A program made the position numbers and the translations under genes. From Nanobdellota archaeon (GTDB lineage: Archaea > Aenigmatarchaeota > Aenigmatarchaeia > QMZP01): a DNA stretch of 35,146 nucleotides. Shown here in pieces: positions 3,358 to 27,294 of the stretch. The notes beneath the pieces are model-generated. The model had not been told where the DNA came from, did not search any database, and saw only the letters and a program-made list of their open reading frames with translations. The stretch's first letter is position 1; each line of letters begins with the position of its first letter. The stretch spans positions 1 to 35,146 of the forward strand of contig JAHIRU010000074.1 of the NCBI GenBank assembly GCA_018818465.1, given 5' to 3'.

Positions 3358-3358
3358 T

Positions 3359-5411: not shown

Positions 5412-5427
5412 TTTTGGAAAACACAAT

Positions 5428-7016: not shown

Positions 7017-7037
7017 ATGAATAGCATAATTTAATTC

Positions 7038-7047
7038 TTTATAAATT
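7038..7047 (-). promoter_or_regulatory. TATA-like box ~26 nt upstream of the racemase ATG
   Basis: The minus strand reads aatttataaa. No SD lies between it and ATG at 7016. Confidence 0.3.
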
Positions 7048-7071
7048 TTATCAAAAATTGGTGCATTTCAT

Positions 7072-8244: not shown

Positions 8245-8287
8245 ACAGAATTCATAACAAGTATGTTTTTTAAGTTTTAATTAAGCT

Positions 8288-8300
8288 AAAAAATTAAAAA
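8288..8300 (-). terminator. oligo-T tracts (T5 and T6) immediately after the rSAM-B1 stop
   Basis: The minus strand reads caaatttttaattttttagc directly downstream of TAG (8305-8307). Oligo-T runs act as archaeal terminators. Confidence 0.3.
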
Positions 8301-8304
8301 TTTG

Positions 8305-11180: not shown

Positions 11181-11186
11181 ATGGAT

Positions 11187-12584: not shown

Positions 12585-12587
12585 AAT

Positions 12588-13259
12588 TTACCAAAGATTT
12601 TTGAATACTCTCCAAGCATAAACCCAACCCATTCTCCAAATATTTATTCCAGATTCACCATACAGTCTCTTTTTTTCTTGGCTCGAAACTTCTACAATTT
12701 TGTACCCTTTTTTGTAACATTTCATTACCATCTCGGTTTCTACATCAAATATATTTGCTTCAAGCTTTAGGTCTTTAGCTACATCGGTTTTTATAGCTCT
12801 GAAACCGTTTTGTGTGTCGCCTATGGCTGTACGAAATCTCCAATTTATTAATTGGGCAATAGAAATGCTAAGAAACATTCTCATAAATTTACCAAAATCT
12901 CCGTGAAGTTCTTCACTTCCTCCCATAAATCTTGATGCTATTACCATATCTGCATTACCACACTTTATGGGTTGCACTATTTTGGGTATGTCTTCTGGTA
13001 TATGAGATCCGTCTGCATCTATGAAAACTATTATATCCCCGCTGGCATGTTCAATTCCAACCCTTATGCCATCACCCTTTCCTTTACCGTTATCAACAAC
13101 TGTTCTAATGCCCATTTCCTCTGCTATTTCTTTTGTTCTGTCAGTTGATTTTTTCGCAGAAACGACCAATATTTCATCGCCATACGGCTTGACTTTTTCC
13201 AGAATATCCTTTATAGTTCTCTCTTCATTAAAGGTAGGAACAACAATAGACACTTTCAT
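12588..13259 (-). CDS. GT2-family glycosyltransferase, soluble dolichyl/polyprenyl-phosphate sugar synthase-like (GT2 a)
   Basis: 223 aa. Shows VSIVVPTFNEE, a DxD-type FIDADGSH motif and a GT-A fold pattern. No TM segment. Confidence 0.8.
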   Translation of the reverse strand: MKVSIVVPTFNEERTIKDILEKVKPYGDEILVVSAKKSTDRTKEIAEEMGIRTVVDNGKGKGDGIRVGIEHASGDIIVFIDADGSHIPEDIPKIVQPIKCGNADMVIASRFMGGSEELHGDFGKFMRMFLSISIAQLINWRFRTAIGDTQNGFRAIKTDVAKDLKLEANIFDVETEMVMKCYKKGYKIVEVSSQEKKRLYGESGINIWRMGWVYAWRVFKNLW

Positions 13260-13292
13260 GTTAGTTTTTAACGAAACTATAATATAAATAGT

Positions 13293-14246
13293 TTAAATTT
13301 TTGGCTTAACAGGGGTTTTTATCCAAAAAAACAACCCTATTGGCACTGTAATCCAATAACCAAAAACAAGGTAAACAAGCGAAAAACTTATTATCATTCC
13401 TTTTGACATACCAACTAATGGCAAGACAAGCAACAAGAACGTTTCCCTAGTGCCTATGCCTGATACAGAAACAGGTATAAGCTCAATTATTACCATAACG
13501 CTTATGACAGCGAAAATAAATAAATAATTGAACGATATACCAAACGCTAACCCAAAGAATAGGGCCAGCATTATAGAAAACAACCAAATAAAAATATTAA
13601 ATAGAGTTATAGTAAAAAGATTCCTTTTTTTATTTTTTAGTTCTCCAAAAACATCATAGAACCCATAAAAATCCAGCTTTAACTTTTCTTTATATTTGCC
13701 TGGTACAAACAAATTGAATAATGGTTTTAGCAATTTCCTCATGGAATTCTTTCTTGTGAATATGTAAAAACCAACAAAAAAGGCGGCAACAAATCCCAAA
13801 ATCAATCCAAACGATATGATTGTATACCCAAACCATACATTCAGCAGGATGACCCCTATCAGGGCAGAACATAATACAACAGCCAGATCTATTATTCTAT
13901 CAGCAATAACTACGGATAATCTCTTTCCGAATGGTTGCAAATCATCCAGATAAAAAACTTTTATAAAATCTCCAACTCTTCCAGGCGTAATTAATCCTGT
14001 GAATAAACCAATTGACCATATTTTGAAACAATTAAACATACTTTCATCAAAACCGTGTGCATTAATTACCATTTTGAATTTTATTGCCCTCAAAAAGAGA
14101 ATGAAAAAGGCAGAGCCAATGCCTAACAATAAAAAGAAAATATTAATTTGTTGGAAAGATGCTATTATTTTGTCGATTCCAATATTCCAGACAATGTATG
14201 CAAATAAAGCAACACCTATAACAGGCATGTAATTTAAAATTTTCAT
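13293..14246 (-). CDS. UPF0104 / MprF-type flippase-like domain membrane protein (a)
   Basis: 317 aa and polytopic. It carries the two hallmark pseudo-repeat motifs of the family: ITPGRVGDFIK (P-x-x-x-G-[DE]) and IPVSVSGIGTRE (P-x-x-G-x-G-x-x-E). Confidence 0.7.
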   Translation of the reverse strand: MKILNYMPVIGVALFAYIVWNIGIDKIIASFQQINIFFLLLGIGSAFFILFLRAIKFKMVINAHGFDESMFNCFKIWSIGLFTGLITPGRVGDFIKVFYLDDLQPFGKRLSVVIADRIIDLAVVLCSALIGVILLNVWFGYTIISFGLILGFVAAFFVGFYIFTRKNSMRKLLKPLFNLFVPGKYKEKLKLDFYGFYDVFGELKNKKRNLFTITLFNIFIWLFSIMLALFFGLAFGISFNYLFIFAVISVMVIIELIPVSVSGIGTRETFLLLVLPLVGMSKGMIISFSLVYLVFGYWITVPIGLFFWIKTPVKPKI

Positions 14247-14449: not shown

Positions 14450-15391
14450 ATGTATCGAAATAAAAAAATAAGTGTCGCAATGCCGGCATATAATGAAGAA
14501 AAATTAATAGAGAAAGCTATTAAATCCATCCCTGATTTTGTAGATAAATTAATAGTAGTTGATGATGATTCAAAAGACAATACATTTTCTATAGCAAAAA
14601 AATACGAGGGCAAAAGAGTTACAGTAATAAAACATACAAAAAATCAGGGTGTTGGCGGAGCCATAATAACCGGTTTCAAAGAGGCTTTGAAAGAAAAAGC
14701 AGATATAGCTGTTGTAATGGCAGGAGACGCCCAAATGGATCCAAACGATTTACCAAATATATTAGATCCTATAGTAAATAATGTTGTTGACTGCACGAAA
14801 GGGAACAGGTTCCTTCACCCAGAAATTTACAAAAAAATGCCAAAATTCAGATTGTTTGGCAATAGAATTTTAACAATACTGACAAAGATATCGTCCGGAT
14901 ACTATCACATATCTGATCCGCAGAATGGATATGTTGCAGTTTCAAGAAATGTTTTAGAAACAATTGATTGGGGCATGGTTGATAAAAGATTTAGTTTTGA
15001 AAACGATATGTTGATTCATCTCAACGTAAATAATTTTTCAGTGAAAAACATAAAAACAAATCCTATATATGGCGAAGAAAAATCCAAGATAAAAATTCAT
15101 AGTTTTGCACTAAAACTTAGTTTTCTCCTAATAAAAAAGTTTTTCTGGAGAATAAAAGAAAAATATTTTGTAAGAGATTTTCATCCAACATTTATATTTT
15201 TTATAGCAGGTTTCATTATGCTTTTTTTCGGTTTGATTTGGAGCTTGCTTGTTTTGAGGGCAAGATTCATCACGCCTGATATAACATGCGGATCAGTTGT
15301 TCTTTCCGCTTTATTATTGATTTGTGGTTCACAATCAATTTTCACAGGATTCATCCTTGACATGTATGAAAGTAAAACATTAAAAACATAG
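14450..15391 (+). CDS. GT2-family polyprenyl-phosphate glycosyltransferase with two C-terminal TM helices (ArnC/GtrB-like; GT2 b)
   Basis: 313 aa. Shows ISVAMPAYNEE, VVDDDSKD, AGDAQMD, and C-terminal helices FIFFIAGFIMLFFGLIWSLLVL and GSVVLSALLLICGSQSIFTGFIL. Confidence 0.85.
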   Translation: MYRNKKISVAMPAYNEEKLIEKAIKSIPDFVDKLIVVDDDSKDNTFSIAKKYEGKRVTVIKHTKNQGVGGAIITGFKEALKEKADIAVVMAGDAQMDPNDLPNILDPIVNNVVDCTKGNRFLHPEIYKKMPKFRLFGNRILTILTKISSGYYHISDPQNGYVAVSRNVLETIDWGMVDKRFSFENDMLIHLNVNNFSVKNIKTNPIYGEEKSKIKIHSFALKLSFLLIKKFFWRIKEKYFVRDFHPTFIFFIAGFIMLFFGLIWSLLVLRARFITPDITCGSVVLSALLLICGSQSIFTGFILDMYESKTLKT

Positions 15392-15399
15392 TGATAAAA

Positions 15400-16650
15400 A
15401 TGCAAAATAAAACGTTATCTAAGGTTGATTTGATCAGAAATGAACTGGATTTGGAATATAAACAATCCATAATTTTAAAGTACACGTTACTATTGGGTTT
15501 AAGAGAAAAAATACCGCCAAGTATAAGAAACAGGGTTGGATTTTCGTTTGAAAAATTAAAAAATCCAAAAAGAGATTTTCCAATAGACAGAAAAGTACAA
15601 ACACTGGAATACGAAGCTATGAAAAAAAATGTTTCAGAAAAAAAATATCATCTAATGATTAAACCATGGACAACATTCTCGGCATGCTTCACACATGATG
15701 TGGATACATTTTATGATTTAAAGGAAGGAATATCAATCCTCAGAAAAATCGAGAAAAAACATGACATAAAATCAACATGGAATTTTGTTCCAGAGTCAAA
15801 AGAATATAAAATAGATAAAGAACTTTTAAAATCACTTGAAAGAGACGGCCATGAAATAGCATCACATAGTTTAAAGCATGATGGAAAATTCGCTTTTTTG
15901 AGCAAACATGAAAGAAGATTAAGAGTTAGAAAATCAAAGGAAATTTTCAAAAAAATGGGATTCAATATCAATGGTTTCAGGGCGCCCTGGTTACATAGAA
16001 CAAGGGATTTAATATTATTTCTGGAAGAAAATAAATATCTTTGGGATTCTTCATTTCCAGACACTGACAACACAACGATTGGTTACAGAGGAACGGGCTG
16101 TTCTACAGTTTTTCCTTTTCAACCTTTAATCAAAGAAAACAAAGGCTATAGAAAATCAAGCATAATAGAACTGCCTATAACAGTCCCACAGGACTGGAGC
16201 TTAATACACCCAATGAAATTATCAAATGAAAAAATATTATCTTTATGGATTGAGAAGGTTGATTATATAGAAGATGTTGGAGGTCTTGCTCTTTTTTTGA
16301 CACATCCAGCAAAATATGATATCGGGAACAATGAAAGATCATGGATTTACGATGATATTATAAAATATATAAAAAACAAGAAACCATTCATTGGCAGATG
16401 TATTGATGTAGCAGAGAGATGGAAGGCAACCAACGATATTCAGTATAATCTGGATATAAAAAAAATGAACTTGCATATGAAGTCTGAAAGAAGAATAAAG
16501 AATCTAGCCTTCTATATATTTTCACCCAAAAATGAAAAATTGAAGAGCAACGACTGCGAACTTCTGAAATCTGACATTTTTTTCAACAAAAAAAGGTCTC
16601 TATTTTTGGTAAAAAGCCTTGATAGAGAAATGAACATGCACTTCCACTAA
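15400..16650 (+). CDS. polysaccharide deacetylase (NodB homology, CE4) with N- and C-terminal extensions
   Basis: CE4 motifs occur in order: FTHDVDT (Asp-Asp), HSLKHD (H-S-x-x-H) and FRAPW (RxPY-like). The track begins at a GTG at 15391, which overlaps the upstream stop. ATG at 15400, preceded by AGTGAT, is the alternative I list. Confidence 0.8.
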   Translation: MQNKTLSKVDLIRNELDLEYKQSIILKYTLLLGLREKIPPSIRNRVGFSFEKLKNPKRDFPIDRKVQTLEYEAMKKNVSEKKYHLMIKPWTTFSACFTHDVDTFYDLKEGISILRKIEKKHDIKSTWNFVPESKEYKIDKELLKSLERDGHEIASHSLKHDGKFAFLSKHERRLRVRKSKEIFKKMGFNINGFRAPWLHRTRDLILFLEENKYLWDSSFPDTDNTTIGYRGTGCSTVFPFQPLIKENKGYRKSSIIELPITVPQDWSLIHPMKLSNEKILSLWIEKVDYIEDVGGLALFLTHPAKYDIGNNERSWIYDDIIKYIKNKKPFIGRCIDVAERWKATNDIQYNLDIKKMNLHMKSERRIKNLAFYIFSPKNEKLKSNDCELLKSDIFFNKKRSLFLVKSLDREMNMHFH

Positions 16651-16651
16651 A

Positions 16652-16660
16652 CATTTAAAG
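16652..16660 (+). promoter_or_regulatory. TATA-like box ~25 nt upstream of the rSAM-A3 ATG (possible internal promoter)
   Basis: catttaaag sits in the 30-nt gap after the CE4 stop. No SD. Confidence 0.3.
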
Positions 16661-16680
16661 ATTTTCTTTTAACTTAAACT

Positions 16681-18192
16681 ATGAAATTTGAATTCATCAG
16701 ACCACCTTATACATATTTTGGCATGCTGGTATCGCCAAGAATAGACATACCGCTTGGACTTTTATACATAGCTACCAAATTGGACAAAATGGGTTATGAA
16801 GTTAAAATATTCGATGCTTTAATAGAGAACCCAAAGATATCCAGATACGGAAATATCATACATTTTGGAGAATCATGGGAAAACGTTAAAAAAGAGATAG
16901 AGAGAACCAGACCGGATATTGTTGGCATAACAAACCAGTTCACACAACAAATAAGGAGCAGCATACAATTAGCAAAAATTATCAAGGAAGTTGATAAAAA
17001 CATAACAGTAGTTGTTGGTGGAAACCACCCATCAGTCCTACCAAATGATTTTTTGAACAGAACAGAAGACATTGATATAATAGTTATGGGTGAGGGCGAG
17101 GAAACATTCCCTGAAATAATAGAATATAAAAACGGCAATAAAAAACTAAAAGACATAAAAGGAATAGCTTACAGGGAAAAGGGAAAAATAAAAATTAACG
17201 AAAGAAGAGAATTTATAAAAAATCTGGATGAAATTTCAATACCATCATACCATTTAATAGACATAGAAAAATATTTTGCAGCAGTTAAAGAAGGGTTTTC
17301 GACAAGACCAGACCAATACACAGAATCAGAGAGACAGGTTTCAGTAATAACAAGCAGAGGATGTCCATTCAATTGTGTTTTCTGTTCAATTCACTGCCAT
17401 ATGGGAAAAGTTTGGAGATCACATTCACCTGAATATGTTTTAAAACATTTAGAGATTCTGACAAAAAAATATAATGTGAAACATATTCATTTTGAAGATG
17501 ACAACCTAACTCTTGACCCCAAAAGATTTGAATCAATTTTAGACGGAATAAAAAAGAGGAACATAAAAATAACATGGGACACACCGAACGGTGTAAGGCT
17601 CGATACATTGAATAAGAAGCTTATAGAGAAAATGAAAGAGTCAGGATGTCGCCAGTTAAAAATAGCAATAGAATCAGGTGATCAAAAAACACTTGATGAA
17701 ATAATTGATAAAAAACTTGATTTAAAAAAAGCAGTTGAAATAGCAAAAATATGCAGAGAACTCAAATTACCATTAAGCTCATTCTATATAATAGGTTTTC
17801 CGTATGAAACCAGGGAATCAATAGAGAAGACATTGAATTTCGCATTTACTTTGAAGAAAAAATATAAAGTCAGACCTCACGTGAGTATAGCCATACCTAT
17901 GATGGGAACAAGGCTGCATGATATTTGCGAGAAGAACGGATATATATTGAAAAAGGCATTTGATAGCGACAGTGTTATAAATGTTTTTGGTGAGGGTGTT
18001 ATAAAAACAGAAGAATTTTCCCCAGACGATCTCCAAAGATATATCCATAAATTCTACCAAAAAATACTATTGACCTATATAGAGGACATGATATGCGAGC
18101 CTTCCATTTTTTTAGGAATGTTGAAAAGATTTTTCAAAAACCCAAAGTCAACATTAAATGTAATAAAAGCAGGGACTAGCTACCTAAAATAG
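16681..18192 (+). CDS. B12-binding-domain radical SAM protein (subfamily A, rSAM-A3)
   Basis: 503 aa. Shows PLGLLYIATKL, IVGITN, VVGGNHPS, MGEGEETF, CxxxCxxC = CPFNCVFC and IAIESGDQ. Confidence 0.9.
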   Translation: MKFEFIRPPYTYFGMLVSPRIDIPLGLLYIATKLDKMGYEVKIFDALIENPKISRYGNIIHFGESWENVKKEIERTRPDIVGITNQFTQQIRSSIQLAKIIKEVDKNITVVVGGNHPSVLPNDFLNRTEDIDIIVMGEGEETFPEIIEYKNGNKKLKDIKGIAYREKGKIKINERREFIKNLDEISIPSYHLIDIEKYFAAVKEGFSTRPDQYTESERQVSVITSRGCPFNCVFCSIHCHMGKVWRSHSPEYVLKHLEILTKKYNVKHIHFEDDNLTLDPKRFESILDGIKKRNIKITWDTPNGVRLDTLNKKLIEKMKESGCRQLKIAIESGDQKTLDEIIDKKLDLKKAVEIAKICRELKLPLSSFYIIGFPYETRESIEKTLNFAFTLKKKYKVRPHVSIAIPMMGTRLHDICEKNGYILKKAFDSDSVINVFGEGVIKTEEFSPDDLQRYIHKFYQKILLTYIEDMICEPSIFLGMLKRFFKNPKSTLNVIKAGTSYLK

Positions 18193-18200
18193 CTATAAAT

Positions 18201-19091
18201 TTACTTTTTGGTAGCCTTTGAATTGTCTATTTTAATAGATTTATAAAATACAACAAATCCCACTATTATCATAATGCCAAGCATTAGTGCATAAAGAAGC
18301 GGTATCAAGAGAGCGATTCCGATATTGGTTATCGCACCCTGAAGCAAAAAACCCATACTGAATTCTCTTGTTCCCCAGCCACCAGGAAGGTATGAAATGA
18401 TACCTGCCAATAATGATACGCCTAAAATATTTGAGGCCTGTACGAAACCTATATTCACATCAAGTGAATAAATTATAAACATTAAACTAAACACAATTCC
18501 AATTTTATGCACAATTGAAAGTAAAACAATTTTGATGATTCCAAATTTATTATTTACAATTTTTTTGTACATCGAGTAAGTTGCAATGATTGAGGTCAAT
18601 AACAGAAAAAAACACAGCATTATTATGTTTGTGGCGAATGCAAAGACAGCGAGTATAGCAACATCCAGTATCCTTTCAGATAACGGAACTATCAAACATT
18701 TTTTTCTCGAGCATCCTGTTTTGTTTCTTATAAATTCTATTTTTGAAAATTCCCCTAAATTTGCTGGCGTTACATGACCAAGAGAATTTGCAGAAAACAA
18801 AATCTTAAGAGAGTCCTTGAATGATATGTTACTATTAGTAACGATTTTAACCATTATCTGGAGTCGCTTTCCTACTATCAAGGCAACACCGAATGAGAAA
18901 ATTATAGCAAAAATGAAAAGCGGAAGATTTATTCTGTAAAAATATTTTCCAATTTCATCGAAATTAACATACAGCATCCAACCATAAGTAGCAATAACGA
19001 AGAGTGTCAATACCGATATCAAAATCTTCAGAACAACTCTGATTTTTCTATTTTCATAAAACGATTTTAGATAATCTAAATCTAAATGCAT
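18201..19091 (-). CDS. UPF0104 / MprF-type flippase-like domain membrane protein (b)
   Basis: 296 aa and polytopic. Motifs VTPANLGEFSK and LPGGWGTRE. Confidence 0.7.
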   Translation of the reverse strand: MHLDLDYLKSFYENRKIRVVLKILISVLTLFVIATYGWMLYVNFDEIGKYFYRINLPLFIFAIIFSFGVALIVGKRLQIMVKIVTNSNISFKDSLKILFSANSLGHVTPANLGEFSKIEFIRNKTGCSRKKCLIVPLSERILDVAILAVFAFATNIIMLCFFLLLTSIIATYSMYKKIVNNKFGIIKIVLLSIVHKIGIVFSLMFIIYSLDVNIGFVQASNILGVSLLAGIISYLPGGWGTREFSMGFLLQGAITNIGIALLIPLLYALMLGIMIIVGFVVFYKSIKIDNSKATKK

Positions 19092-19130
19092 AATATTAAT
19101 TAATATATGATTTATTTAATTGTTTAATTC

Positions 19131-20423
19131 TTATTTGAGTTGCTTTATCAGCTTGTTAACAGTAGAAAATGCAGATTTTGCGCAGGCCTCTAACCCAGAA
19201 TCTATTATCGGTGTTGTTGGGAGATAATATCCTGCAAGACCGAATCCCTTGATCGGAGTTCTTTCTATTTCTTCGGACCAGTATTCTTTGGGTTGTATAG
19301 GATTTGCATATTTGCATTCGATAAAACGTTTCCAAACAACATCCTTCTCAAATCCCCTGAAAAGCGTTTCAAGTTTTTCTATGCTATCTCTGTCATATCT
19401 TTCTTTGTTCAATTTAGAGTCTTCTGGTATGTAGTTATCAATACAAAAAAGCTCAACATCTTTTGGCACTATGTTGTATGTATAATAAGTGGTTCTTGTT
19501 AGCCTCTTGAATGTAAAATCTGAAGGGAAGAATGTGCAATAATTCATTTTCCATCTTTCCTTTTTCTTAACTGCATAGTAACCGATAGCACTCTTCTTGT
19601 AACTTATGTTTTTTATTGGTTTTGAAATGAGTTGCCAAATTTCCGGTGAAACTGTTTTCAGAGAAGAAGGAGGTATTGTTGATATAACAGCATCAAATAT
19701 TTTCTTTTTATCTTCATCTTTTTTATCAGTATTTGTGTATACAGAGAATTTTTCATTTCTCATTGTTATTTCAGAGACATCCACACCTTTAACGAATTTG
19801 ACATCATTTTTTTCCAATCCTCGAGAAACATTTTCTGTTATGGCGCCGAAACCTCCAACAGAAGGATATCCGTATAATTTTCCAGTCTTTGTCATACCAG
19901 CAAGTCTTGTTGCAACCCAAGAAGCAGGCACATTTTTCATTGATGATATCTTCCATTCGGTAATAGGTGAAAAAACATCTTTGTATAACTCTTCACCAAA
20001 ACTCCTCTTTAACCATGATTCTGCATCTTCATCTTTCCAGCTCTTCATATTAAGCGCTGATTTTAGATAAAACCTTGCAAGCGATGGTGTTTTCCTTCCC
20101 ATTTTAACAGCCATTTTCACCAAACCAGGAAAATCAAATGTATAAATACTGCCTTTATACCATAAGGAATTTTTAATCCTTTTACGTATAATCGACATTT
20201 CAGGTGCCATATCATTTAAAATAGAAATAGTTTTTTCTGCGTCAAGCCCTATTATATGCGGACCAAAATCAAGCGTGTAGGCATCAAACTCTTCACTTCC
20301 GGCTACCCCACCAATCTTATTATCCTTTTCAATAACAGTTACTTTAAATCCACTTTTATTTAGATAGTAGGCGCATGCTATTCCAGAAAATCCAGATCCC
20401 AAAACCGCTACTTCCATATCCAT
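19131..20423 (-). CDS. FAD/NAD(P)-binding oxidoreductase (amine oxidase / PPOX / UGM-like fold)
   Basis: 430 aa. The N-terminal dinucleotide fold is VAVLGSGFSGIACAYYL...VTVIEKDNKIGG, followed by FGPHII and YGYPSVGGFG, with a C-terminal GLAGYY...DSGLEA. Confidence 0.75.
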   Translation of the reverse strand: MDMEVAVLGSGFSGIACAYYLNKSGFKVTVIEKDNKIGGVAGSEEFDAYTLDFGPHIIGLDAEKTISILNDMAPEMSIIRKRIKNSLWYKGSIYTFDFPGLVKMAVKMGRKTPSLARFYLKSALNMKSWKDEDAESWLKRSFGEELYKDVFSPITEWKISSMKNVPASWVATRLAGMTKTGKLYGYPSVGGFGAITENVSRGLEKNDVKFVKGVDVSEITMRNEKFSVYTNTDKKDEDKKKIFDAVISTIPPSSLKTVSPEIWQLISKPIKNISYKKSAIGYYAVKKKERWKMNYCTFFPSDFTFKRLTRTTYYTYNIVPKDVELFCIDNYIPEDSKLNKERYDRDSIEKLETLFRGFEKDVVWKRFIECKYANPIQPKEYWSEEIERTPIKGFGLAGYYLPTTPIIDSGLEACAKSAFSTVNKLIKQLK

Positions 20424-20434
20424 AACCTTAAAAC

Positions 20435-21856
20435 TTAAAACGCATTATGTTTCAGGAAATTAGCTCCTGCAACAAACCACCTGAAGAACTGCTCTGGTGA
20501 TTTTATTTTTTTTAAGACGGAAAAAACATAACTCGGTTTTAAATAAAAACTCCTGTATGCATTCCTTATTAGTTTGTTTAATTCTTCTGTACTCAACTCT
20601 TCTGTTCTGAGAACAGATGTATAACCACCGCAAGCGTATTTGTTCCATTCGGTCGATGTTATCATATTTTTTCCATTAACAATGTCATATAATTCTGTTC
20701 CAGGATATGGTATTAGTGGATTGAATGTAGCAAAATCAGGATTTAATTCCTTAGCAAAATCCACTGTTTTTTTGAAAGTTTCTTTAGTTTCTCCTGGAAG
20801 GCCGCAGAGAAAAGAGGTTATTACATTTATTCCAGAATCCTTTATCATTCTAACAGAATCCCTTATCATAGGTATTGTTGTCCCTTTTTTTGCAACATCC
20901 AATAATTCCTGAACACCGCTTTCAATCCCTATACTCAAACCAACACAACCACTCTTTTTCATTAATTTTAGCATTTCCATATCAATTGTTCCTGCTCTGG
21001 AATTTGCAAACCATTTTATATCTATTTTTCTGTCAATTAAGCCCTTGCACAATTCCATCACAAAATCGCGTTTTAAAGTGAAAGTATCTGCCCAAAAGGT
21101 TACTGCCTTGAAACCATTTTTAACAACTTCGAATTCAATCTCATCCAAAACACTCTTAGGGCTCCTGAATCTACTTTGGTCTCCATAGTATATTCTCGCA
21201 ACACAGAAAATACATTGAAACGGGCAGCCTCTGGCAGTTTGCACAAGGGTGTGCCTTCTGTTCAAGTAAAAATCATAATAAAGATTGTTTGGCAGAAGGT
21301 GTCTGGCTGGCCATGGAAGAGAATCAAGGTCTTCAATCCATTCCCTTGTCTTATTAACATATATTTTAGAGTCTTTTTGTGCTGAAGTTCCTTTCACTTT
21401 TAAGAAATTTTTACTGTCTCTAATAGCCTGGCAAAGTTCCAGCGCTGTCATTTCAGGTTCACCCCTTATAACAACATCTAGTGCTGGATTCGATTTCAAA
21501 ATCTCATTATGAAGGACAGTTAAATGTGTTCCAAAAGCAGCTATGATTGTTGCCGGGCTCATTATTTTGATTTTTTTTATGGTTTCCATATCACTGTCTA
21601 TAGAAACAGTTGATGTGTTCATTATTATTATGTCATAACCCACTGAAACGATATTTAGAAGTTCATCCACAGACATGCCTGTTGCTACACCATCTATGAG
21701 TTTTGGTTTAAAGCCACTCTGTTCAAGAATACCGCCTATACAAGCAAGACTCAATTGCGGATAATTGAAACCTTTCCACCAATCACCAGGATTTTGGCAT
21801 CTACCTTCTCTTGCCGTAAGCGTTTCTGAGGGTGGATTTAACAATAATATTTTCAT
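20435..21856 (-). CDS. B12-binding-domain radical SAM protein (subfamily B, rSAM-B2)
   Basis: 473 aa. Shows NPPSETLTAREGRCQ, MNTSTVSID, FGTHLT, CxxxCxxC = CPFQCIFC and IGIESGVQ. Confidence 0.9.
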   Translation of the reverse strand: MKILLLNPPSETLTAREGRCQNPGDWWKGFNYPQLSLACIGGILEQSGFKPKLIDGVATGMSVDELLNIVSVGYDIIIMNTSTVSIDSDMETIKKIKIMSPATIIAAFGTHLTVLHNEILKSNPALDVVIRGEPEMTALELCQAIRDSKNFLKVKGTSAQKDSKIYVNKTREWIEDLDSLPWPARHLLPNNLYYDFYLNRRHTLVQTARGCPFQCIFCVARIYYGDQSRFRSPKSVLDEIEFEVVKNGFKAVTFWADTFTLKRDFVMELCKGLIDRKIDIKWFANSRAGTIDMEMLKLMKKSGCVGLSIGIESGVQELLDVAKKGTTIPMIRDSVRMIKDSGINVITSFLCGLPGETKETFKKTVDFAKELNPDFATFNPLIPYPGTELYDIVNGKNMITSTEWNKYACGGYTSVLRTEELSTEELNKLIRNAYRSFYLKPSYVFSVLKKIKSPEQFFRWFVAGANFLKHNAF

Positions 21857-21860
21857 ATCA

Positions 21861-22901
21861 TTATCCTGTATGCCTTAATAAATAAGGTCCCAATCTCTTT
21901 GATATAAAGATTGGAAACATTTTCCACAGCATTATCATTGATTTGAACTTCGGACTTGTTGAATCAATTAAAGGCAACTCATGAATTTTATTTAAATAAT
22001 AATAGTAAGGCACTTTTATATTCTTTGTTCCCCACCTTGATTTAAATAACAACAAGTTTTTGTGTTCAGGAGGAGTTATGCCAAAATCAAAAACATCAAA
22101 ACCGTTATTTTTAGACCACTTTATAGCATTCCACAGCAAGAGATTATTTGGCTGCAGATTCAGGTACCTCCTTTTCGATGCTGCATATGCATATATAACT
22201 TCTTTTTTGTAAAACAATAAAACTAAACCAGCTATACAAATATCATCCTTATATGCCAAGTAAAGTTTTGAATTTGAACCTAAATTTTTGTAAATATTCT
22301 CAAACAATGAAAACGAGTAAGCAGGCAATCCCTGATGTTTTCTTGTTTCTAAGAGAATCTTATAGAATTTCTTGTAATCTTCTATATTTTTACCTTCAAC
22401 TACATTAACACCATTTTTTTCTGCCTTTTTGATCCCCCATCTAACACTACTTTTATCAAAATTTTTCCACAGGATATCAAGAGAATCTTTTAAATAGAGA
22501 AAAGAGCATATGTAGTGAGGACACTCTTTCAATCCGTTAAGTTTTATGTTAGGCCTTTCTTTTATTTCCAAATAATCTAAGCCACGATCATCAACAATCT
22601 TTTTTGCAAAATCAACAAGCCCACTAACAGTGACATTACCGCCCAAAACACCAACAGAATGTGAATAAGGAAGTGAAACCGTCCTTTTACCAAAGAAAAT
22701 ACTTCTAACCTCAAACATTGGAAGAATCCCGTTTATTTTTTTATCATTGCCCTTCGCCATTATATAGAAAGGTTTGTACTTGTAGGTTTTTTCAATTACA
22801 TTTTTCCATTCCACTGTGTGATACAGGTTTGACTCTGAATGATTTTCAACAAAGTTTTTCCACTCATTCTCATTTTCTTTACTTAAAATTTCAACTTTCA
22901 T
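21861..22901 (-). CDS. FemAB-like / Acetyltransf_6 (GNAT-fold) aminoacyl- or acyl-transferase
   Basis: 346 aa. Shows NLYHTVEWKNVIEKTY and the FemX-like C-terminal pattern YAYAASKRRYLNLQPNNLLLWNAIKWSKNNGFDVFDFGITPP...LLLFKSRWG. A GGAGGA SD lies 6 nt upstream of its ATG, inside the preceding gene. Confidence 0.72.
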   Translation of the reverse strand: MKVEILSKENENEWKNFVENHSESNLYHTVEWKNVIEKTYKYKPFYIMAKGNDKKINGILPMFEVRSIFFGKRTVSLPYSHSVGVLGGNVTVSGLVDFAKKIVDDRGLDYLEIKERPNIKLNGLKECPHYICSFLYLKDSLDILWKNFDKSSVRWGIKKAEKNGVNVVEGKNIEDYKKFYKILLETRKHQGLPAYSFSLFENIYKNLGSNSKLYLAYKDDICIAGLVLLFYKKEVIYAYAASKRRYLNLQPNNLLLWNAIKWSKNNGFDVFDFGITPPEHKNLLLFKSRWGTKNIKVPYYYYLNKIHELPLIDSTSPKFKSMIMLWKMFPIFISKRLGPYLLRHTG

Positions 22902-24045
22902 TCAACATCCTCCTCAGAGCAGAAGATATATGATTTATGTCGTTTTCATTTAAATGAGGACCCATTTGCAGTGACATTATAGATTTTGAAAGCATATCTG
23001 CACATGGATAATCAGTATTTTTTTCGTTATAGAATGCAGGTGAAATGAATGGATATATTATGCCAATATCTATGCCAAATTTTCTCATCCTCTCAAGAAA
23101 ATTTTCTCTCTTCGAACCCATAAAAGATTTATGATAAAAACTAAACCACAAAGCAGAGTGTTTTACACCATTTCTTTCTTCAGGTAAAACAATATCATTT
23201 ATATCAGACAGGCTATCTTTTAGTATTTTGAATTGCGATCTTCTAGTATCTAGTACCTGTTTAAAACCCTTGATTTGAAAACGAAAAAGCTTCTCGTTGA
23301 GCGTAGAGCCTCCTCTAAAATCCATTTCATTAACAGATTCGATCTTTCGACCAAATTCTTTCCAGATTCTGTAAGTAGAACCGTATATTTTTTTATTCAT
23401 CAAGAATTTTCTGGATGTTAGTGAGATAATAAAGCCAATATCATCAAAAAAACCAGGTTTCTTTACATCGGCTATGACATCTTTCATCTTTTTATAAATA
23501 TCTTCATTATTTGTTGCAACACAACCACCGCCAGTACTCATGGGTTTTCCAAACCCAAAACTAAAGCATGATACATCGCCTAGCGAGCCCACGCTCATAC
23601 CTTTATATTCAGCACCAAGAGCTTGCGCGGCATCTTCTATTACAAAAAGATCGCGCTCCTTTGCAAGTTTCTTCAATTTGTTTGATTCATAGGGATTGCC
23701 ATACAGGTGAACAGGGATTATAGCTTTTGTTTTTTTTGTTACCTTGCTCTCTATTTTTTCTATGCAGATATTACCAATGTTTTCAGGATCTTTATAAACA
23801 TCAACAAATACAGGTTTTATGCCAAACCTTGTTAAAGAATCAGGAACAACATTGCATATAAACGCAGGGAGAATAACCTCATCTCCTTTTTTAATGCCAA
23901 GAGCTTTAAGTGCATACATCATGCTCCCCCTACACGATGAGAAGAAAAAAACATGTTTTGCTTCTGTTAACGTTTCAAAATCTCTATTCTTTTCATTATA
24001 AAAAATACCCCGGAGACTGCATAAAGATCCATATCTTGGTATCAT
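22891..24045 (-). CDS. DegT/DnrJ/EryC1/StrS-family PLP-dependent aminotransferase (second copy)
   Basis: 384 aa. Shows GDEVILPAFICNVV, IEDAAQALG, and CFSFGFGKPMSTGGGG with a candidate Schiff-base Lys. A GAGGT SD overlaps the upstream stop. Confidence 0.82.
   Translation of the reverse strand: MIPRYGSLCSLRGIFYNEKNRDFETLTEAKHVFFFSSCRGSMMYALKALGIKKGDEVILPAFICNVVPDSLTRFGIKPVFVDVYKDPENIGNICIEKIESKVTKKTKAIIPVHLYGNPYESNKLKKLAKERDLFVIEDAAQALGAEYKGMSVGSLGDVSCFSFGFGKPMSTGGGCVATNNEDIYKKMKDVIADVKKPGFFDDIGFIISLTSRKFLMNKKIYGSTYRIWKEFGRKIESVNEMDFRGGSTLNEKLFRFQIKGFKQVLDTRRSQFKILKDSLSDINDIVLPEERNGVKHSALWFSFYHKSFMGSKRENFLERMRKFGIDIGIIYPFISPAFYNEKNTDYPCADMLSKSIMSLQMGPHLNENDINHISSALRRMLNES
22908..22913 (-). promoter_or_regulatory. 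Shine-Dalgarno GGAGGA for the FemAB-like gene
   Basis: The minus strand reads TGAGGAGGATGTTGAATG, giving a 6-nt spacer. It lies inside the DegT 3' end. Confidence 0.55.
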
Positions 24046-24048
24046 ATA

Positions 24049-24053
24049 ACCTC
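24049..24053 (-). promoter_or_regulatory. Shine-Dalgarno GAGGT for the second DegT gene
   Basis: The minus strand reads TAGAGGTTATATG. The stop of rSAM-B3 overlaps the SD. Confidence 0.4.
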
Positions 24054-25450
24054 TAAAGATTTTTAAACAAACCTATCCCATTTTTAATATCCTCCCAAAC
24101 ATTTCTGAGAGATTTCCATGTTTTTATTCGTTTGAAAAAATATCGTGGTCTAATGTAAAATTTTCTGTACGAATTATGAAATGTTGACCAGACAACATTT
24201 CTAGGGAGCCATGGTGTTTCAAAAACAGGATAAAGAGTTGGTTCATACTTACTAAAGTCGTGTGTAATTATCCAGCCATTTTTTTTGCAAATTTCATACA
24301 AATCTGTTCCTGGAAACGGCGTACATATATTGAATGAGGCAAAATCAGGATCTAACTCTATCACAAGTTTTATTGTTTCATCCATTGTTTCTTTGGTCTC
24401 ACCAGGATAACCTAAAACACAATGTGCAAGTGTTTCAATACCAACTTCCTTTGTCTCCTTGAACACTTTCTTCATTTGAGAAATCGTTGTATTTTTCTTA
24501 CTTTCGTCCAATATCCTTTGATTTCCAAACTCAACACCAAGGAGGACTGTGTGGCAGCCGGCTTCTTTCATTTTCTTTAAAAGTTCTTTATCTATTTTAT
24601 CCACTCTTGAAGAGCATGCCCATGAAATATTCATTCTGTTTTTTATCATTTCATCACAGATTTTGATTGCCCTGTCTCTAAAAAGCGTAAACGTATCATC
24701 CCAAAATATAATCTCCTTCATGTTCATTTCAAAACAGAGATGTTTCAATTCTTCCATCAAGTTCTCAACACTTCTCATCCTGAATGGAAACATCTTTGTA
24801 GTACAAAAAACACAGGAGTATGGGCATCCAATAGACGTTAATGTAGCAGTTAGCGGATAGAATCTAGCATAAGGAACATGATAATGTCTTAAATCAACAG
24901 CATCATGTGCAGGATAAATCTCCAACGATTTTCTTTTTATATCACTTCCTTTCTCAATTTTATTACCATTTCTATAATATGTATTGGGTATGTCCTTTAT
25001 TTTTCCCTCAAAAAAATCAATAACATCAATTATACTTTCCCATGAATCACCCCGTATTATAAAGTCTATCTCTTTATAATCTTTCAGTATATCTTCTGGT
25101 ATTGCAGATGCATGAGTTCCTATCAGACCAATCTTAACATCTGCTAATATATTCTTAAAAATTTTCGCAATATCAGTATCATTATAGAATGTTGGGGTCG
25201 ATGTTAAGAGGAGCAACATATCAGGACTGTAGTCTTTAATCTGTTTTTTCATCCCATTGATATCAGTTTGCCATGCATTGAAGTCGAATATCTTGAATTG
25301 ATGTTTTGTTTTTTTCAATGCTCCGCCAACCATCATAAGGTCTATTGGCGGCCAGGCATAATCGGCCTTTGATCTAACGTTTGCACCTTTGTCCTTTATG
25401 TACACATCCTTACTTCCTATCTGGGACGGATTCACTAGAGATATTTTCAT
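24053..25450 (-). CDS. B12-binding-domain radical SAM protein (subfamily B, rSAM-B3)
   Basis: 465 aa. Shows LLLTSTPTFYND, IGTHAS, CxxxCxxC = CPYSCVFC and LGVEFGNQ. The N-terminus reads NPSQ... and lacks the GRCQ seen in B1 and B2. Confidence 0.88.
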   Translation of the reverse strand: MKISLVNPSQIGSKDVYIKDKGANVRSKADYAWPPIDLMMVGGALKKTKHQFKIFDFNAWQTDINGMKKQIKDYSPDMLLLLTSTPTFYNDTDIAKIFKNILADVKIGLIGTHASAIPEDILKDYKEIDFIIRGDSWESIIDVIDFFEGKIKDIPNTYYRNGNKIEKGSDIKRKSLEIYPAHDAVDLRHYHVPYARFYPLTATLTSIGCPYSCVFCTTKMFPFRMRSVENLMEELKHLCFEMNMKEIIFWDDTFTLFRDRAIKICDEMIKNRMNISWACSSRVDKIDKELLKKMKEAGCHTVLLGVEFGNQRILDESKKNTTISQMKKVFKETKEVGIETLAHCVLGYPGETKETMDETIKLVIELDPDFASFNICTPFPGTDLYEICKKNGWIITHDFSKYEPTLYPVFETPWLPRNVVWSTFHNSYRKFYIRPRYFFKRIKTWKSLRNVWEDIKNGIGLFKNL

Positions 25451-25519
25451 AACATCAATTAAGTCTATAATTACTTAAGTTTATCATTATTAACCGATAT
25501 TCAAATGATTCTTCAGTTA

Positions 25520-27262
25520 TTAAAGATTTATCATGAATATGAAGGTTCTGTCTTCAGTTTCTATACCGTCTATAGTCTTCAATAAAATAAAGGTTTCCGG
25601 TTTTGATAGAAAGTAATTTATATCGTAATCAAATGATGGATCATTAAGTTGTTTTTCATGAATAACGATATATTTTGTTTTCGGATAAGCTATTCCAAAC
25701 TCCTCCCAAAGTTCTTTTGTTGACCTGTAAGAGAAGTTACCTTTTATTGCTTCTGGTATGAATCTATATTTTGCTGACATATACATGGAATATATATAAT
25801 GATTGTTATTCCAATCCCATCTTGAGAACTCAAACATTTGCAAATGACCATAAGTTGTGATGACGGTGGTAGGCTCTGTTATATATTCTGATAGAAACTC
25901 AGCTGTTTTACTGAAGTCTGCTGTTGTTGGATAAGTCCGATTGGCTTCATACATCTCTTTACTTATTTTTACATTCGGGTCAAAAGTTATCCAAACAGAA
26001 TCAAAAAATGCTGTTTGAAAAATAGAAAAAGCTGTGAAAATAAGGATTGTGGACCAGAAAAACCTTTTCAGGTTTCTTTTAGATCCCCATTTTTCAAAGG
26101 AAGCAAAAATACCATAAACGGAAATTATAACAAAGAAAGGTATCATGTAAATTAAAAATCTAACAAATGATGTTGGTGCTGTTCTTACAACAAAAAAGTA
26201 GAGGAAAAATATTATTGAGAGTAGCATTGTTTTTTCTGCAATTTTATCACCAATCTTTTTCTTTAAACCAAAGTATATTCCTGCGAAGAAAAACGGAACA
26301 AGATAAATTTGATGAAATAAAGCAGACAATGCTCCAACAAGTTTTCCTTGCTCTATTATAGAATATGAAGGAAGCCAAGACAAAATATAATCTATACCAG
26401 TTGCAATTTCCTTTGATCTGCTGCTAGATGCCCATGACCATGTGCTTATGTAAGAATCTAGCAAACCGTTAGCATAAAGTACAAATAATTGAATAAGGAG
26501 AGGCATTAAAACAATTAAGAAAATTATCAGAGCCTTAAGTCTTATCTTTGGATCTTTCCATATCAAATTTATTTTTTTCTCCCACAATAAAACGACAAAA
26601 AATACAGGTATCATTAAAATCATCGCGTGTTTTGACATTATTCCAAGTGCCAGCGAAATCACAAAGAAATACAAGTCATTTTTCTTTTCATACCTCAAAA
26701 ACTTTATGAAAAAATAAACAGATGATACTATGAAAGCAGTTAATAGTATATCAACATAATTTTGATTTGATATGCTGAAGATAATCGCATTAAAACCAAC
26801 CAAAATTGTACACAAAAATGGATACACTTTATTTTTGAAATAAAGTTTTGATAGCTTGAAAACAAAGAACAAAAGCACCATAGATTCAAAGACAGTAGCC
26901 AAATTCGTTGTAAATACCGATACGCCTAAAATCAAAAAAATCAACGCAGAGAACATCATATCCAGCGGCGGATATAATGAAAAAATGCTAAAGAATTTGT
27001 AATGGCTATGATAATCTATTGCAAATTCTTTTATCTCATTAAACGAAATTGTCGGATTTGAAAACCACCAGACTACAAGATTTTTTGTGAAGAGAGCGGA
27101 GCTTGCATGTTGTCCCTGATCCCAATCGCTAAGATTATCAAATCTCATCGTTGCAGTGAACAATAGAAAAAAACATGCCAATATTATGATTAGTATTTTA
27201 CTTTCTTTTGATATCTCTGTTAATTTTAGTTTTGTGAATCTTTCCACAAATCCCAATTTCAT
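25520..27262 (-). CDS. GT-C fold membrane glycosyltransferase, ArnT/PMT_2-like (GT-C b)
   Basis: 580 aa. The first ~420 aa are polytopic. The first loop is acidic (NLSDWDQGQHASSA). It carries an ALGIMSKHAM motif and a soluble C-terminal domain of ~160 aa. Confidence 0.62.
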   Translation of the reverse strand: MKLGFVERFTKLKLTEISKESKILIIILACFFLLFTATMRFDNLSDWDQGQHASSALFTKNLVVWWFSNPTISFNEIKEFAIDYHSHYKFFSIFSLYPPLDMMFSALIFLILGVSVFTTNLATVFESMVLLFFVFKLSKLYFKNKVYPFLCTILVGFNAIIFSISNQNYVDILLTAFIVSSVYFFIKFLRYEKKNDLYFFVISLALGIMSKHAMILMIPVFFVVLLWEKKINLIWKDPKIRLKALIIFLIVLMPLLIQLFVLYANGLLDSYISTWSWASSSRSKEIATGIDYILSWLPSYSIIEQGKLVGALSALFHQIYLVPFFFAGIYFGLKKKIGDKIAEKTMLLSIIFFLYFFVVRTAPTSFVRFLIYMIPFFVIISVYGIFASFEKWGSKRNLKRFFWSTILIFTAFSIFQTAFFDSVWITFDPNVKISKEMYEANRTYPTTADFSKTAEFLSEYITEPTTVITTYGHLQMFEFSRWDWNNNHYIYSMYMSAKYRFIPEAIKGNFSYRSTKELWEEFGIAYPKTKYIVIHEKQLNDPSFDYDINYFLSKPETFILLKTIDGIETEDRTFIFMINL

Positions 27263-27284: not shown

Positions 27285-27294
27285 TATATAAATA
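27285..27294 (-). promoter_or_regulatory. TATA-like box ~27 nt upstream of the GT-C b ATG (start of the 27262->18201 operon)
   Basis: The minus strand reads atttatatat. No SD before ATG at 27262. Confidence 0.35.

Follow-up and report, generated by a model that had tools for sequence, protein, structure and literature searches.

The DNA stretch analysed here is a 35,146-nt window (contig JAHIRU010000074.1, assembly GCA_018818465.1, a Nanobdellota archaeon) in which a string of seven minus-strand genes (18201-27262) converges on a shorter plus-strand operon (14450-18192). Within the string lies a gene, at 21861, for a FemAB-like protein. We propose that this locus directs the assembly, on a lipid carrier, of an unusual amino sugar, which is aminoacylated by the FemX-like product of this gene, flipped across the membrane and attached to the cell surface, in an Arn-like three-component system with tailoring on the lipid. 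We put the probability of this reading at roughly 55%. It draws on the gene identities, the FemX-type fold of the FemAB-like protein and its conserved catalytic lysine, synteny, natural fusion proteins and an archaeal bin assignment. The two convergent operons most likely form one module of a large surface-glycan island.

The FemX-like enzyme

In Pfam, the 21861 protein matches FemAB (PF02388) over two stretches at 71.4 bits (cutoff 24) and Acetyltransf_6 at 49.4 bits; its best NCBIfam match is TIGR03019 (199.3 bits, residues 13-345 against 2-329 of 330). A family profile built from 20 homologues recovers Staphylococcus aureus FemX from the Protein Data Bank (PDB; 6snr, E=2.6e-22) over both GNAT halves, and Weissella FemX (FemX_Wv) at about 1e-20. 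With the AlphaFold2 (AF2) model of the protein (pLDDT 93.4, pTM 0.90), a Foldseek search places 6snr, 1lrz and 1ne9 on top (TM-scores of 0.68-0.74), and the best 25 PDB neighbours are all aminoacyl-tRNA-dependent: FemX, FemA, the streptothricin aminoacyl-tRNA peptide synthases Sbb17 and Sba18, and the C-domains of MprF. Tandem GNATs that use acetyl-CoA rank lower (0.4-0.58). Judged by this model, the protein resembles FemX and is no plain GNAT. The first-pass annotation had suggested as much from the open reading frame (ORF), and the structural and profile checks bear it out, returning a FemX-type tandem-GNAT fold and a FemAB match above the Pfam cutoff; no coiled coil was found. A plain single-domain GNAT acetyltransferase is ruled out by the tandem-GNAT fold, the Foldseek neighbours and a missing acyl-CoA loop motif.

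At the presumed active site, F286-K287 aligns with F304-K305 of FemX_Wv, in which Lys305 is described as the sole reactive group of the active site (PMC12945691). Of 140 diverse family representatives, 139 retain K287, and all 140 have an aromatic residue (F or Y) before that position. The [QR]xxGx[GA] acyl-CoA loop motif is absent from the 21861 protein and present in only four of the same 140. A conserved basic helix at the start of domain 2 (residues 150-162, with K150, R154, K158 and K159) falls where FemX_Wv carries KTKSKIKR. The protein thus shares with FemX_Wv, and with FemX and FemA of S. aureus, its tandem-GNAT fold (TM-scores of 0.71-0.74), its aromatic-lysine pair, its basic helix and its missing acyl-CoA loop, at a length (346 residues) close to the 335 of FemX_Wv. 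It differs from them in sequence (15-17% identity), in lacking the coiled coil of FemA and S. aureus FemX, in its archaeal host without peptidoglycan, and in an acceptor that is presumably a sugar amine, not the lysine of a peptide stem. Lack of a coiled coil does not speak against the use of tRNA, since Weissella FemX is also without one. Two extra C-terminal helices (317-345), which bear an invariant P330, are a further difference and are specific to the 21861 family; they may bind the membrane.

The closest curated family, TIGR03019, is an uncharacterised FemAB family of XrtA/PEP-CTERM, bacterial exopolysaccharide (EPS) loci. The 21861 protein resembles it in its end-to-end alignment, its polysaccharide context and the presence in the window of an AsnB-like amidotransferase that resembles TIGR03108; it differs in scoring below the cutoff, in its archaeal host, and in the lack of any exosortase or PEP-CTERM component among the window genes scanned. 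FemAB-like genes have long been annotated in polysaccharide loci, to our knowledge never with an assay.

These comparisons bear directly on one alternative, that the enzyme is an acyl-CoA-dependent N-acyltransferase which puts an unusual acyl group back on the sugar amine after de-N-acetylation or transamination, the other steps being as we propose. We consider this unlikely. The Acetyltransf_6 match would suit it, homologues are named 'GNAT family N-acetyltransferase' or 'CelD/BcsL' in databases, and deacetylation followed by re-acylation is a common logic in glycan pathways (e.g. LpxC/LpxD). Furthermore, our literature searches, as far as they reached, found no assayed member of the Acetyltransf_6/TIGR03019-like branch, so that the case for tRNA dependence is one of homology. 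Against an acyl-CoA donor stand the aminoacyl-tRNA dependence of the best 25 structural neighbours, with acyl-CoA tandem GNATs clearly lower, the absence of the pyrophosphate loop motif here and in 136 of the 140 relatives, and the near-invariance of the FemX catalytic lysine. By homology, then, we favour aminoacyl-tRNA as the probable donor.

Conserved partners of FemAB-like genes

Relatives of the 21861 protein were followed through the gene neighbourhoods of its homologues (L-numbers) and through family representatives from an all-against-all search of 1.84 billion representatives (P-numbers); window proteins were also compared with the ORFs of 40 further metagenome loci. In that search the family comprises at least 4,508 clusters at 50% identity (E<=1e-30), and its members, which sit in many glycan loci, occur in bacteria and in archaea such as Methanocellales. 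The first-pass annotation had considered a FemAB-like enzyme outside peptidoglycan unusual: its archaeal setting stands, but its supposed rarity does not. A narrower FemAB-like alignment scanned against GTDB genomes found no relative, the window's own locus being suspected of having been masked there.

The closest homologues (37-46% identical) are flanked by orthologues of five window genes, encoding a family 2 glycosyltransferase (GT2), a CE4-like deacetylase, a radical S-adenosylmethionine (SAM) enzyme (rSAM-A or rSAM-B), a DegT aminotransferase and an LPG_synthase_TM membrane protein. Orthologues of the GT2 at 14450 (250-336 bits) lie beside FemAB-like genes in nine loci (L006, L007, L009, L023, L024, L027, L028, L029 and L053), and those of the CE4-like protein at 15391 (410-428 bits) in four (L006, L007, L023 and L024), always convergent to the FemAB-like gene. 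Orthologues of rSAM-A or rSAM-B are found near FemAB-like homologues at 284-419 bits, with rSAM-A immediately adjoining in L006 (419 bits) and L029 (356 bits) and rSAM-B in L023. An orthologue of DegT (418 bits) overlaps the FemAB-like start in L007/L008, and DegT genes also lie directly upstream of, and overlap, FemAB-like genes in L030 and L050. The LPG_synthase_TM protein has an orthologue in L006 and family members alongside FemAB-like genes in L006, L007/8, L009 and L022, and on contigs of sufficient length GT-C glycosyltransferase genes are also present (L009, L020). Even a Desulfobacterales genome has GT-C, LPG_synthase_TM and GT2 genes together with FemAB-like ones.

Two family representatives (P0282 and P0237) are natural fusions of a deacetylase with a FemAB-like domain, the deacetylase domain being homologous to the CE4-like protein of the window (E=9e-27 for P0282). 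A third, P0200, fuses a GT4 to the FemAB-like domain. In an in-silico study of a Pseudomonas EPS cluster, a FemX-like GNAT was likewise placed next to a deacetylase (PMC7716237). From the conserved GT2 and CE4 partners and the deacetylase fusions we conclude that the functional unit spans both convergent operons, 14450-18192 (+) and 18201-27262 (-). The first-pass annotation had confined the unit to 18201-27262; its grouping of the genes holds, but its boundaries were too narrow, since the most conserved partners are orthologues of the plus-strand GT2 and CE4-like genes. The same evidence modifies a second suggestion, that an amine installed by DegT is subsequently acylated. The adjacency of DegT and FemAB-like genes does recur, but the conserved CE4-like partner and the fusions make de-N-acetylation at least as likely a source of the amine.

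The seven-gene minus-strand string is itself a genuine gene cluster. Its gene order is identical on 15 contigs from several samples and parts of it recur in unrelated metagenomes, which makes the grouping more than chance. The domain identities first assigned to its products are all confirmed by Pfam and NCBIfam (Table 1).

Two further fusions were seen in the family: P0214 joins an apparently single GNAT-like N-terminal region to the FemAB-like domain (by eye from the sequence), and P0300 carries a further N-terminal region. Among more distant homologues (33-37% identity, one of them in Desulfobacterales), the FemAB-like gene is followed by a sulfotransferase gene (L009, L020 and L022) and is often preceded by one for an unannotated protein of about 255 residues, with LPG_synthase_TM and PMT genes nearby. 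This arrangement looks like a sulfated variant of the cassette.

Table 1. Features of the two convergent operons and their candidate expression signals
Feature	Length	Positions	Strand	Basis and proposed role
GtrB/ArnC/DPMS-type GT2	313 aa	14450-15391	+	Glycos_transf_2 95 bits; outside the first-pass unit; proposed polyprenyl/dolichyl-phosphate N-acetylhexosamine synthase
CE4-like (Polysacc_deac_1/DUF2334) de-N-acetylase	419 aa	15391-16650	+	Outside the first-pass unit; proposed to expose the amine for the FemAB-like enzyme
Third B12-binding radical SAM enzyme	503 aa	16681-18192	+	Radical_SAM 92.5 bits, B12-binding 76.7 bits; last gene of the GT2-deacetylase-radical SAM operon
LPG_synthase_TM (MprF flippase-domain-like) membrane protein	296 aa	18201-19091	-	PF03706 81 bits (cutoff 33), TIGR00374 54 bits (cutoff 43)
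FAD oxidoreductase, amine-oxidase/PRK07233 type	430 aa	19131-20423	-	Amino_oxidase 76.7 bits, NAD_binding_8 57 bits
rSAM-B, B12-binding-domain radical SAM enzyme	473 aa	20435-21856	-	Radical_SAM 92 bits, B12-binding PF02310 35.1 bits
FemX-like tandem-GNAT transferase	346 aa	21861-22901	-	FemAB 71.4 bits, fold model, catalytic Lys; proposed aminoacyl-tRNA-dependent N-aminoacyltransferase on a sugar amine
Divergent DegT/DnrJ/EryC1 PLP sugar aminotransferase	384 aa	22891-24045	-	DegT 206.8 bits (cutoff 19.8), two stretches
GGAGGA Shine-Dalgarno-like motif		22908-22913	-	Inside DegT 3' end, 6 nt before the FemAB-like ATG; read from sequence
rSAM-A, B12-binding-domain radical SAM enzyme	465 aa	24053-25450	-	Radical_SAM 82 bits, B12-binding PF02310 41.9 bits
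GT-C glycosyltransferase (PMT_2/GT39-83-like)	580 aa	25520-27262	-	PMT_2; proposed final extracytoplasmic transferase
TATA-like TTTATATA		27285-27292	-	23-30 nt 5' of the first ATG (27262)

A proposed pathway and its rivals

From this gene content we infer the donor and acceptor sugar, tailoring at the lipid-linked stage, a sequence of steps, the radical SAM chemistry, the role of the flippase and the final acceptor. The membrane-anchored GT2 (14450) would work at the cytoplasmic face, joining an N-acetylhexosamine to dolichyl or polyprenyl phosphate, and the CE4-like enzyme (15391) would strip off its N-acetyl group. The FemX-like enzyme (21861) would then move an aminoacyl group from aminoacyl-tRNA onto a free sugar amine to give an amide; that amine would be either the one exposed by deacetylation or a second one set by DegT (22891) on a keto group, which the FAD oxidoreductase (19131) may generate. 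The HpnJ/AprD4-like radical SAM enzymes (24053, 20435 and 16681) would rearrange, deoxygenate or C-methylate the sugar, the MprF-flippase-like protein (18201) would carry the finished lipid-linked sugar to the outer face, and the GT-C (25520) would attach it at the surface, for example to an S-layer protein, a further glycan or a lipid. None of the tailoring enzymes has a transmembrane (TM) segment, which argues that they are cytoplasmic, where aminoacyl-tRNA is available. The sequence of flipping followed by GT-C transfer, already put forward in the first-pass annotation, fits known three-component systems, among which there are precedents for tailoring on the lipid before flipping, e.g. by on-lipid epimerases (PMC11127046). 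The order of glycosyltransferase, deacetylase and radical SAM enzyme has its own precedent in HpnI/HpnK/HpnJ (PMC13459092).

The properties of the plus-strand enzymes are consistent with the first two steps. The GT2 combines a GT-A domain with two C-terminal TM segments (243-275 and 278-303), and its best NCBIfam matches are AglJ (85 bits), PpgS (63) and Dol-P-hexose transferase (53), all below the equivalog cutoffs. The CE4-like protein scores 30.8 bits against Polysacc_deac_1 (cutoff 23.1) and 28.2 against DUF2334, keeps the CE4 motifs THDVDT, HEIASHSLKH and FRAPW (Asp-Asp, His-x-x-x-His and Arg-x-Pro), and has as its best PDB match the PgdA of Helicobacter pylori (3qbu, 3e-6).

Both rSAM-A (cluster motif CPYSCVFC) and rSAM-B (CPFQCIFC) pass the PF02310 cutoff of 32.1. 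The best NCBIfam match of each is HpnJ (235.9 and 263.5 bits, respectively; cutoff 577.6), ahead of BchE (193 and 216) and, for rSAM-A, AprD4 (136). Among solved structures, rSAM-B comes closest to AprD4 (6fd2, a sugar diol dehydratase; E=6e-29), with the methylases TsrM, TokK and CysS reaching only 1e-6 to 1e-8; AprD4 does not methylate. Since these enzymes are nearer to HpnJ (glucosamine ring contraction), BchE and AprD4 than to the solved methylases, rearrangement or deoxygenation appears as likely as C-methylation. With a cutoff of E<=1e-30, rSAM-A has 1,787 relatives, and most of those with names are archaeal. The third enzyme (16681) is closest to the Sden_1168 family of B12-radical SAM P-methyltransferases (225 bits, cutoff 575), ahead of HpnJ (182), and may carry out a different chemistry from the other two.

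Among the remaining products of the string, DegT retains the PLP lysine motif SFGFGK and falls below every NCBIfam equivalog cutoff (e.g. ArnB, 126 against 631). The GT-C (PMT_2 56.1 bits, cutoff 26.1; PMT 25.1 bits) has approximately 11-13 hydrophobic segments up to residue 390, followed by a C-terminal soluble domain, with a D-x-D-type acidic motif (FDNLSDWDQGQHA) after TM1. It gave no match to PDB sequences, and a word-based search found a single non-identical homologue (38%), too few for taxonomy. The LPG_synthase_TM protein has about 7-8 hydrophobic segments. The FAD protein scores 143 bits against PRK07233 (cutoff 252) and weakly matches both oxidase and mutase types in the PDB (PF1083, 3nrn, 1e-8; UDP-galactopyranose mutase, 1i8t, 2e-7); its single-sequence AF2 model, at pLDDT 35, is unusable for deciding between them.

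A close parallel to the whole is the Arn pathway, which makes the aminoarabinose of lipid A and whose CE4 deacylase acts on a lipid-linked sugar. Here too there are putative counterparts in role to ArnB (DegT), ArnC (the polyprenyl-phosphate GT2), ArnD (the CE4-like deacetylase) and ArnT (the GT-C), and a candidate for that of ArnE/F (the flippase-like protein). Unlike Arn, the locus has no ArnA, its proteins fall far under the Arn equivalog cutoffs, its candidate flippase is of LPG_synthase_TM type and not of SMR type, FemX-like, radical SAM and FAD enzymes are added, and the host is an archaeon. Known three-component systems include Gtr, CsbB/GtcA/YfhO, Citrobacter ORF15/14/12 with its on-lipid epimerase, and mycobacterial DprE1/E2 with a GT-C; the flippase families shown for such systems are GtrA, SMR and MATE (PMC11127046). 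The locus resembles them in its putative polyprenyl-phosphate sugar synthase, its GT-C and the proposed tailoring of the lipid-linked sugar before export, which is optional in such systems; its candidate flippase (LPG_synthase_TM/TIGR00374, above both cutoffs) lies outside these three families. Its tailoring is also far heavier (deacetylase, aminotransferase, FemX-like enzyme, three B12-domain radical SAM enzymes and an FAD enzyme), and the window holds three GT-C/flippase-like sets.

It might instead be supposed that the tailoring genes act on nucleotide-activated sugars, destined for a Wzx-type or N-glycan pathway, and that the GT2, flippase-like and GT-C genes are separate modules which merely share the island. 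We regard this as decidedly unlikely. DegT enzymes classically act on NDP-keto-sugars, the island contains a Wzx-like flippase, a short-chain dehydrogenase/reductase (SDR), a second DegT and an acetyltransferase (2071-6324), and a distant FemAB-like homologue sits in a classical Wzx/Wzy locus (L021). The acceptor of FemX_Wv, moreover, is UDP-linked (PMC12945691). Yet the closest homologues are flanked by a GtrB/ArnC-type GT2 and a CE4-like deacetylase, not by nucleotide-sugar dehydratases; deacetylases are found fused to FemAB-like domains, and in the window the tailoring genes lie between the GT-C and flippase-like genes in a tight string.

The locus also recalls the Hpn enzymes with AprD4, and MprF. 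HpnI, HpnK and HpnJ form the hopanoid cyclitol ether and AprD4 carries out the C3' deoxygenation of apramycin; as there, a glycosyltransferase and a deacetylase are followed by a B12-domain-type radical SAM enzyme on an amino sugar. The scores of rSAM-A and rSAM-B are under half of the HpnJ (TIGR03471) cutoff, though, no hopanoid genes are present, and the deacetylase is CE4-like whereas HpnK belongs to another, YdjC-like, family. With MprF the locus shares two folds, an MprF-type TM domain and a tandem GNAT, here in one operon, and the proposed logic of aminoacylation at the inner face followed by flipping. It differs from MprF (NF033480) in that the two are separate genes, the equivalog score is 21.7 bits against 600, the GNAT is nearer to FemX than to the MprF C-domain, and the presumed substrate is a lipid-linked sugar and not phosphatidylglycerol. 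On these resemblances one could build a reading in which lipid head groups are remodelled and no surface polymer is glycosylated, a glycolipid sugar being de-N-acetylated, ring-contracted to a cyclitol by the HpnJ-like radical SAM enzymes (as for hopanoid cyclitol ether or calditol), aminoacylated and exposed by a split MprF-like pair of FemAB-like synthase and LPG_synthase_TM flippase. HpnJ is indeed the best NCBIfam match for both radical SAM enzymes, and the 21861 model has the MprF synthase domain among its structural neighbours. Many DPANN archaea lack lipid biosynthesis, however, and with the low HpnJ scores, three GT-Cs that imply transfer from a polyprenyl-phosphate donor to an acceptor, and GT2s that best match Dol-P/Pren-P sugar synthases, this is very improbable, even granted that the gene order mirrors HpnI/HpnK/HpnJ and that Cds makes archaeal calditol (PMC13459092).

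Several points nonetheless weigh against our proposal of an aminoacylated, lipid-linked sugar. The 21861 protein falls under the curated cutoffs of TIGR03019 (199.3 against 260.35 bits) and of the FemX equivalog NF047883 (27.5 against 500), and no assayed relative came to light. DegT enzymes normally use nucleotide sugars, and tailoring could partly or wholly precede loading onto the lipid. The flippase role proposed for the 18201 protein is extrapolated from MprF. The gaps of 69 and 39 nt within the string could hold internal promoters, co-transcription of the seven genes being deduced from their spacing and conserved order. Since the contig lacks any universal archaeal marker gene, host calls depend on binning. 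Finally, no related locus compared here contains a counterpart of the FAD gene. This suggests that it is an accessory gene of the locus, and it leaves unsupported the fixed order of the first-pass annotation, in which two radical SAM steps and an FAD-dependent oxidation precede flipping.

The component parts are of known kinds, and multi-radical SAM sugar islands occur in other archaea (e.g. a Methanocellales genome, L063). Three features are new: the setting in a DPANN archaeon, the identification of a conserved GT2/CE4/FemX-like cassette that fusion proteins support, and the coupling of this cassette to MprF-type flippase-like and GT-C genes. Together with the fusions, the cassette offers a concrete substrate hypothesis. 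More tentatively, and with the odds somewhat against it, the FemAB-like family as a whole could be a new class of aminoacyl-tRNA-dependent glycan modifiers, which aminoacylate a de-N-acetylated polyprenyl-phosphate amino sugar whose cationic product is exported by an MprF-type flippase and placed on the surface by a GT-C. If so, Fem-type chemistry would have a third role in cells, in addition to peptidoglycan cross-bridges and lipid aminoacylation; here it would be combined with radical SAM sugar rearrangement. The FemAB-like genes that have long been seen in EPS loci would also acquire a function. The transfer of tRNA-charged amino acids onto lipid-linked sugars would represent a new link between translation and surface glycans, one that would apply to thousands of related bacterial and archaeal genes and not to this locus alone. 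DPANN archaea live attached to hosts; six to seven B12-domain radical SAM enzymes and three GT-C/flippase sets in one island suggest an elaborate surface decoration that could matter for host contact.

Gene layout, host and the surrounding island

The seven minus-strand ORFs run, 5' to 3', from GT-C through B12-binding radical SAM, DegT, FemAB-like, B12-binding radical SAM and FAD oxidoreductase to LPG_synthase_TM. Read in this order, the junctions are 69 nt, 7 nt, an 11-nt overlap (DegT/FemAB-like), 4 nt, 11 nt and 39 nt, and the stop codons of the convergent 16681 and 18201 genes lie 8 nt apart. All seven genes are present where the first-pass annotation had placed them, the ORF coordinates reproduce its junction sizes (4-11 nt, with gaps of 39 and 69 nt), and the DegT/FemAB-like overlap can be read in the sequence along with its GGAGGA motif. 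Its TATA-like box before the first gene is also in position. The TTTATATA-type pattern, though, occurs 12 times in the window (33% G+C) against 14.3 expected and is not enriched, so that only the position of the motif argues for a promoter, possibly the archaeal promoter of a leaderless transcript. No Shine-Dalgarno-like motif was seen upstream of the first ATG; the layout would suit a leaderless archaeal first gene followed by Shine-Dalgarno-led internal genes. Scans of the window for sigma-70 promoters (50 against 44 expected, chance level) and intrinsic terminators (2 against 4.5 expected, no excess) used models not built for archaea, and no tRNA genes or Rfam elements were found in it. An inverted repeat with an 11-bp stem and a T-rich stretch lies at 21888-21916 (-), inside the 3' end of the FemAB-like gene and just before rSAM-B, but it may mean nothing, because terminator-like sites in the region are rarer than chance.

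The host is most likely a DPANN archaeon. The window was also identified as contig JAHJTQ010000060.1 of assembly GCA_018829405.1. Genes just past the window end, in a longer ENA version of the contig, occur in five NCBI metagenome-assembled genome (MAG) records, all named "Nanoarchaeota archaeon", and the closest GTDB-representative match of one such gene is another Nanoarchaeota MAG (66% identity). This agrees with the apparently archaeal, non-peptidoglycan context noted at first pass. Scans with Pfam found no Mur or Mra genes among the window genes covered. Conventional Fem activity on peptidoglycan, in a peptidoglycan-bearing bacterium, is excluded by the FemX equivalog score given above and by the MAG names.

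More generally, the whole window (1-35146) is taken up by a glycan island to which the FemAB-like locus belongs, as seen when 27 window ORFs were scanned against Pfam. The island includes six B12-domain radical SAM genes (312, 8305, 11187, 16681, 20435 and 24053), with a seventh just past the window end, three PMT_2 GT-C genes (9678, 25520 and 28245), three LPG_synthase_TM genes (13293, 18201 and 29587), two small Dol-P/Pren-P-type GT2 genes, two DegT genes and the one CE4-like deacetylase. A Wzx-like flippase, an SDR, a hexapeptide acetyltransferase, GT4s, methyltransferases, an Asp/Glu-type racemase and an AsnB-like amidotransferase are also encoded. Paralogues within the island are only 25-35% identical, which marks the modules as old and distinct and rules out recent tandem duplication as the source of their repetition.

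A second minus-strand module (6327-14246) comprises LPG_synthase_TM, GT2, B12-binding radical SAM, GT-C, B12-binding radical SAM and GT4 genes and, last, the racemase gene. Its GT2 best matches AglJ (134 bits), and its racemase scores 170 bits against TIGR00035 and 157 against the cysteate racemase CuyB (cutoff 190); the presence of such an enzyme in the island hints at a D-amino acid or cysteate-like substituent. The plus-strand nucleotide-sugar set at 2071-6324 (Wzx-like flippase, SDR epimerase/dehydratase, a canonical DegT at 470 bits and a hexapeptide N-acetyltransferase) probably supplies a Wzx-type route of its own with an acetamido-deoxy sugar. The AsnB-like amidotransferase (32311-34086, +) scores 590 bits against the XrtA/PEP-CTERM-associated TIGR03108 (cutoff 817), and its exact sequence gave no recorded match; with the TIGR03019-like protein, it brings two hallmark families of bacterial PEP-CTERM EPS loci together in one archaeal island, and no exosortase family match was found among the 27 ORFs.

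Past the window end (L012:13816-21104, on the same contig), the seventh radical SAM gene is accompanied by a nucleotide-sugar dehydrogenase, small unknown ORFs, a restriction-modification-like gene and a 457-residue protein named 'terpene cyclase/mutase family' or prenyltransferase/squalene oxidase repeat, which is odd for DPANN. A comparable island in a Methanocellales MAG (L063; GCA_030019435.1, JASEEV010000008.1) carries five B12-binding radical SAM and three DegT genes, together with several methyltransferases, GFO/hexapeptide/NTP-transferase genes, a GT4 and an SDR. Multi-radical SAM sugar islands thus seem to recur in archaea.

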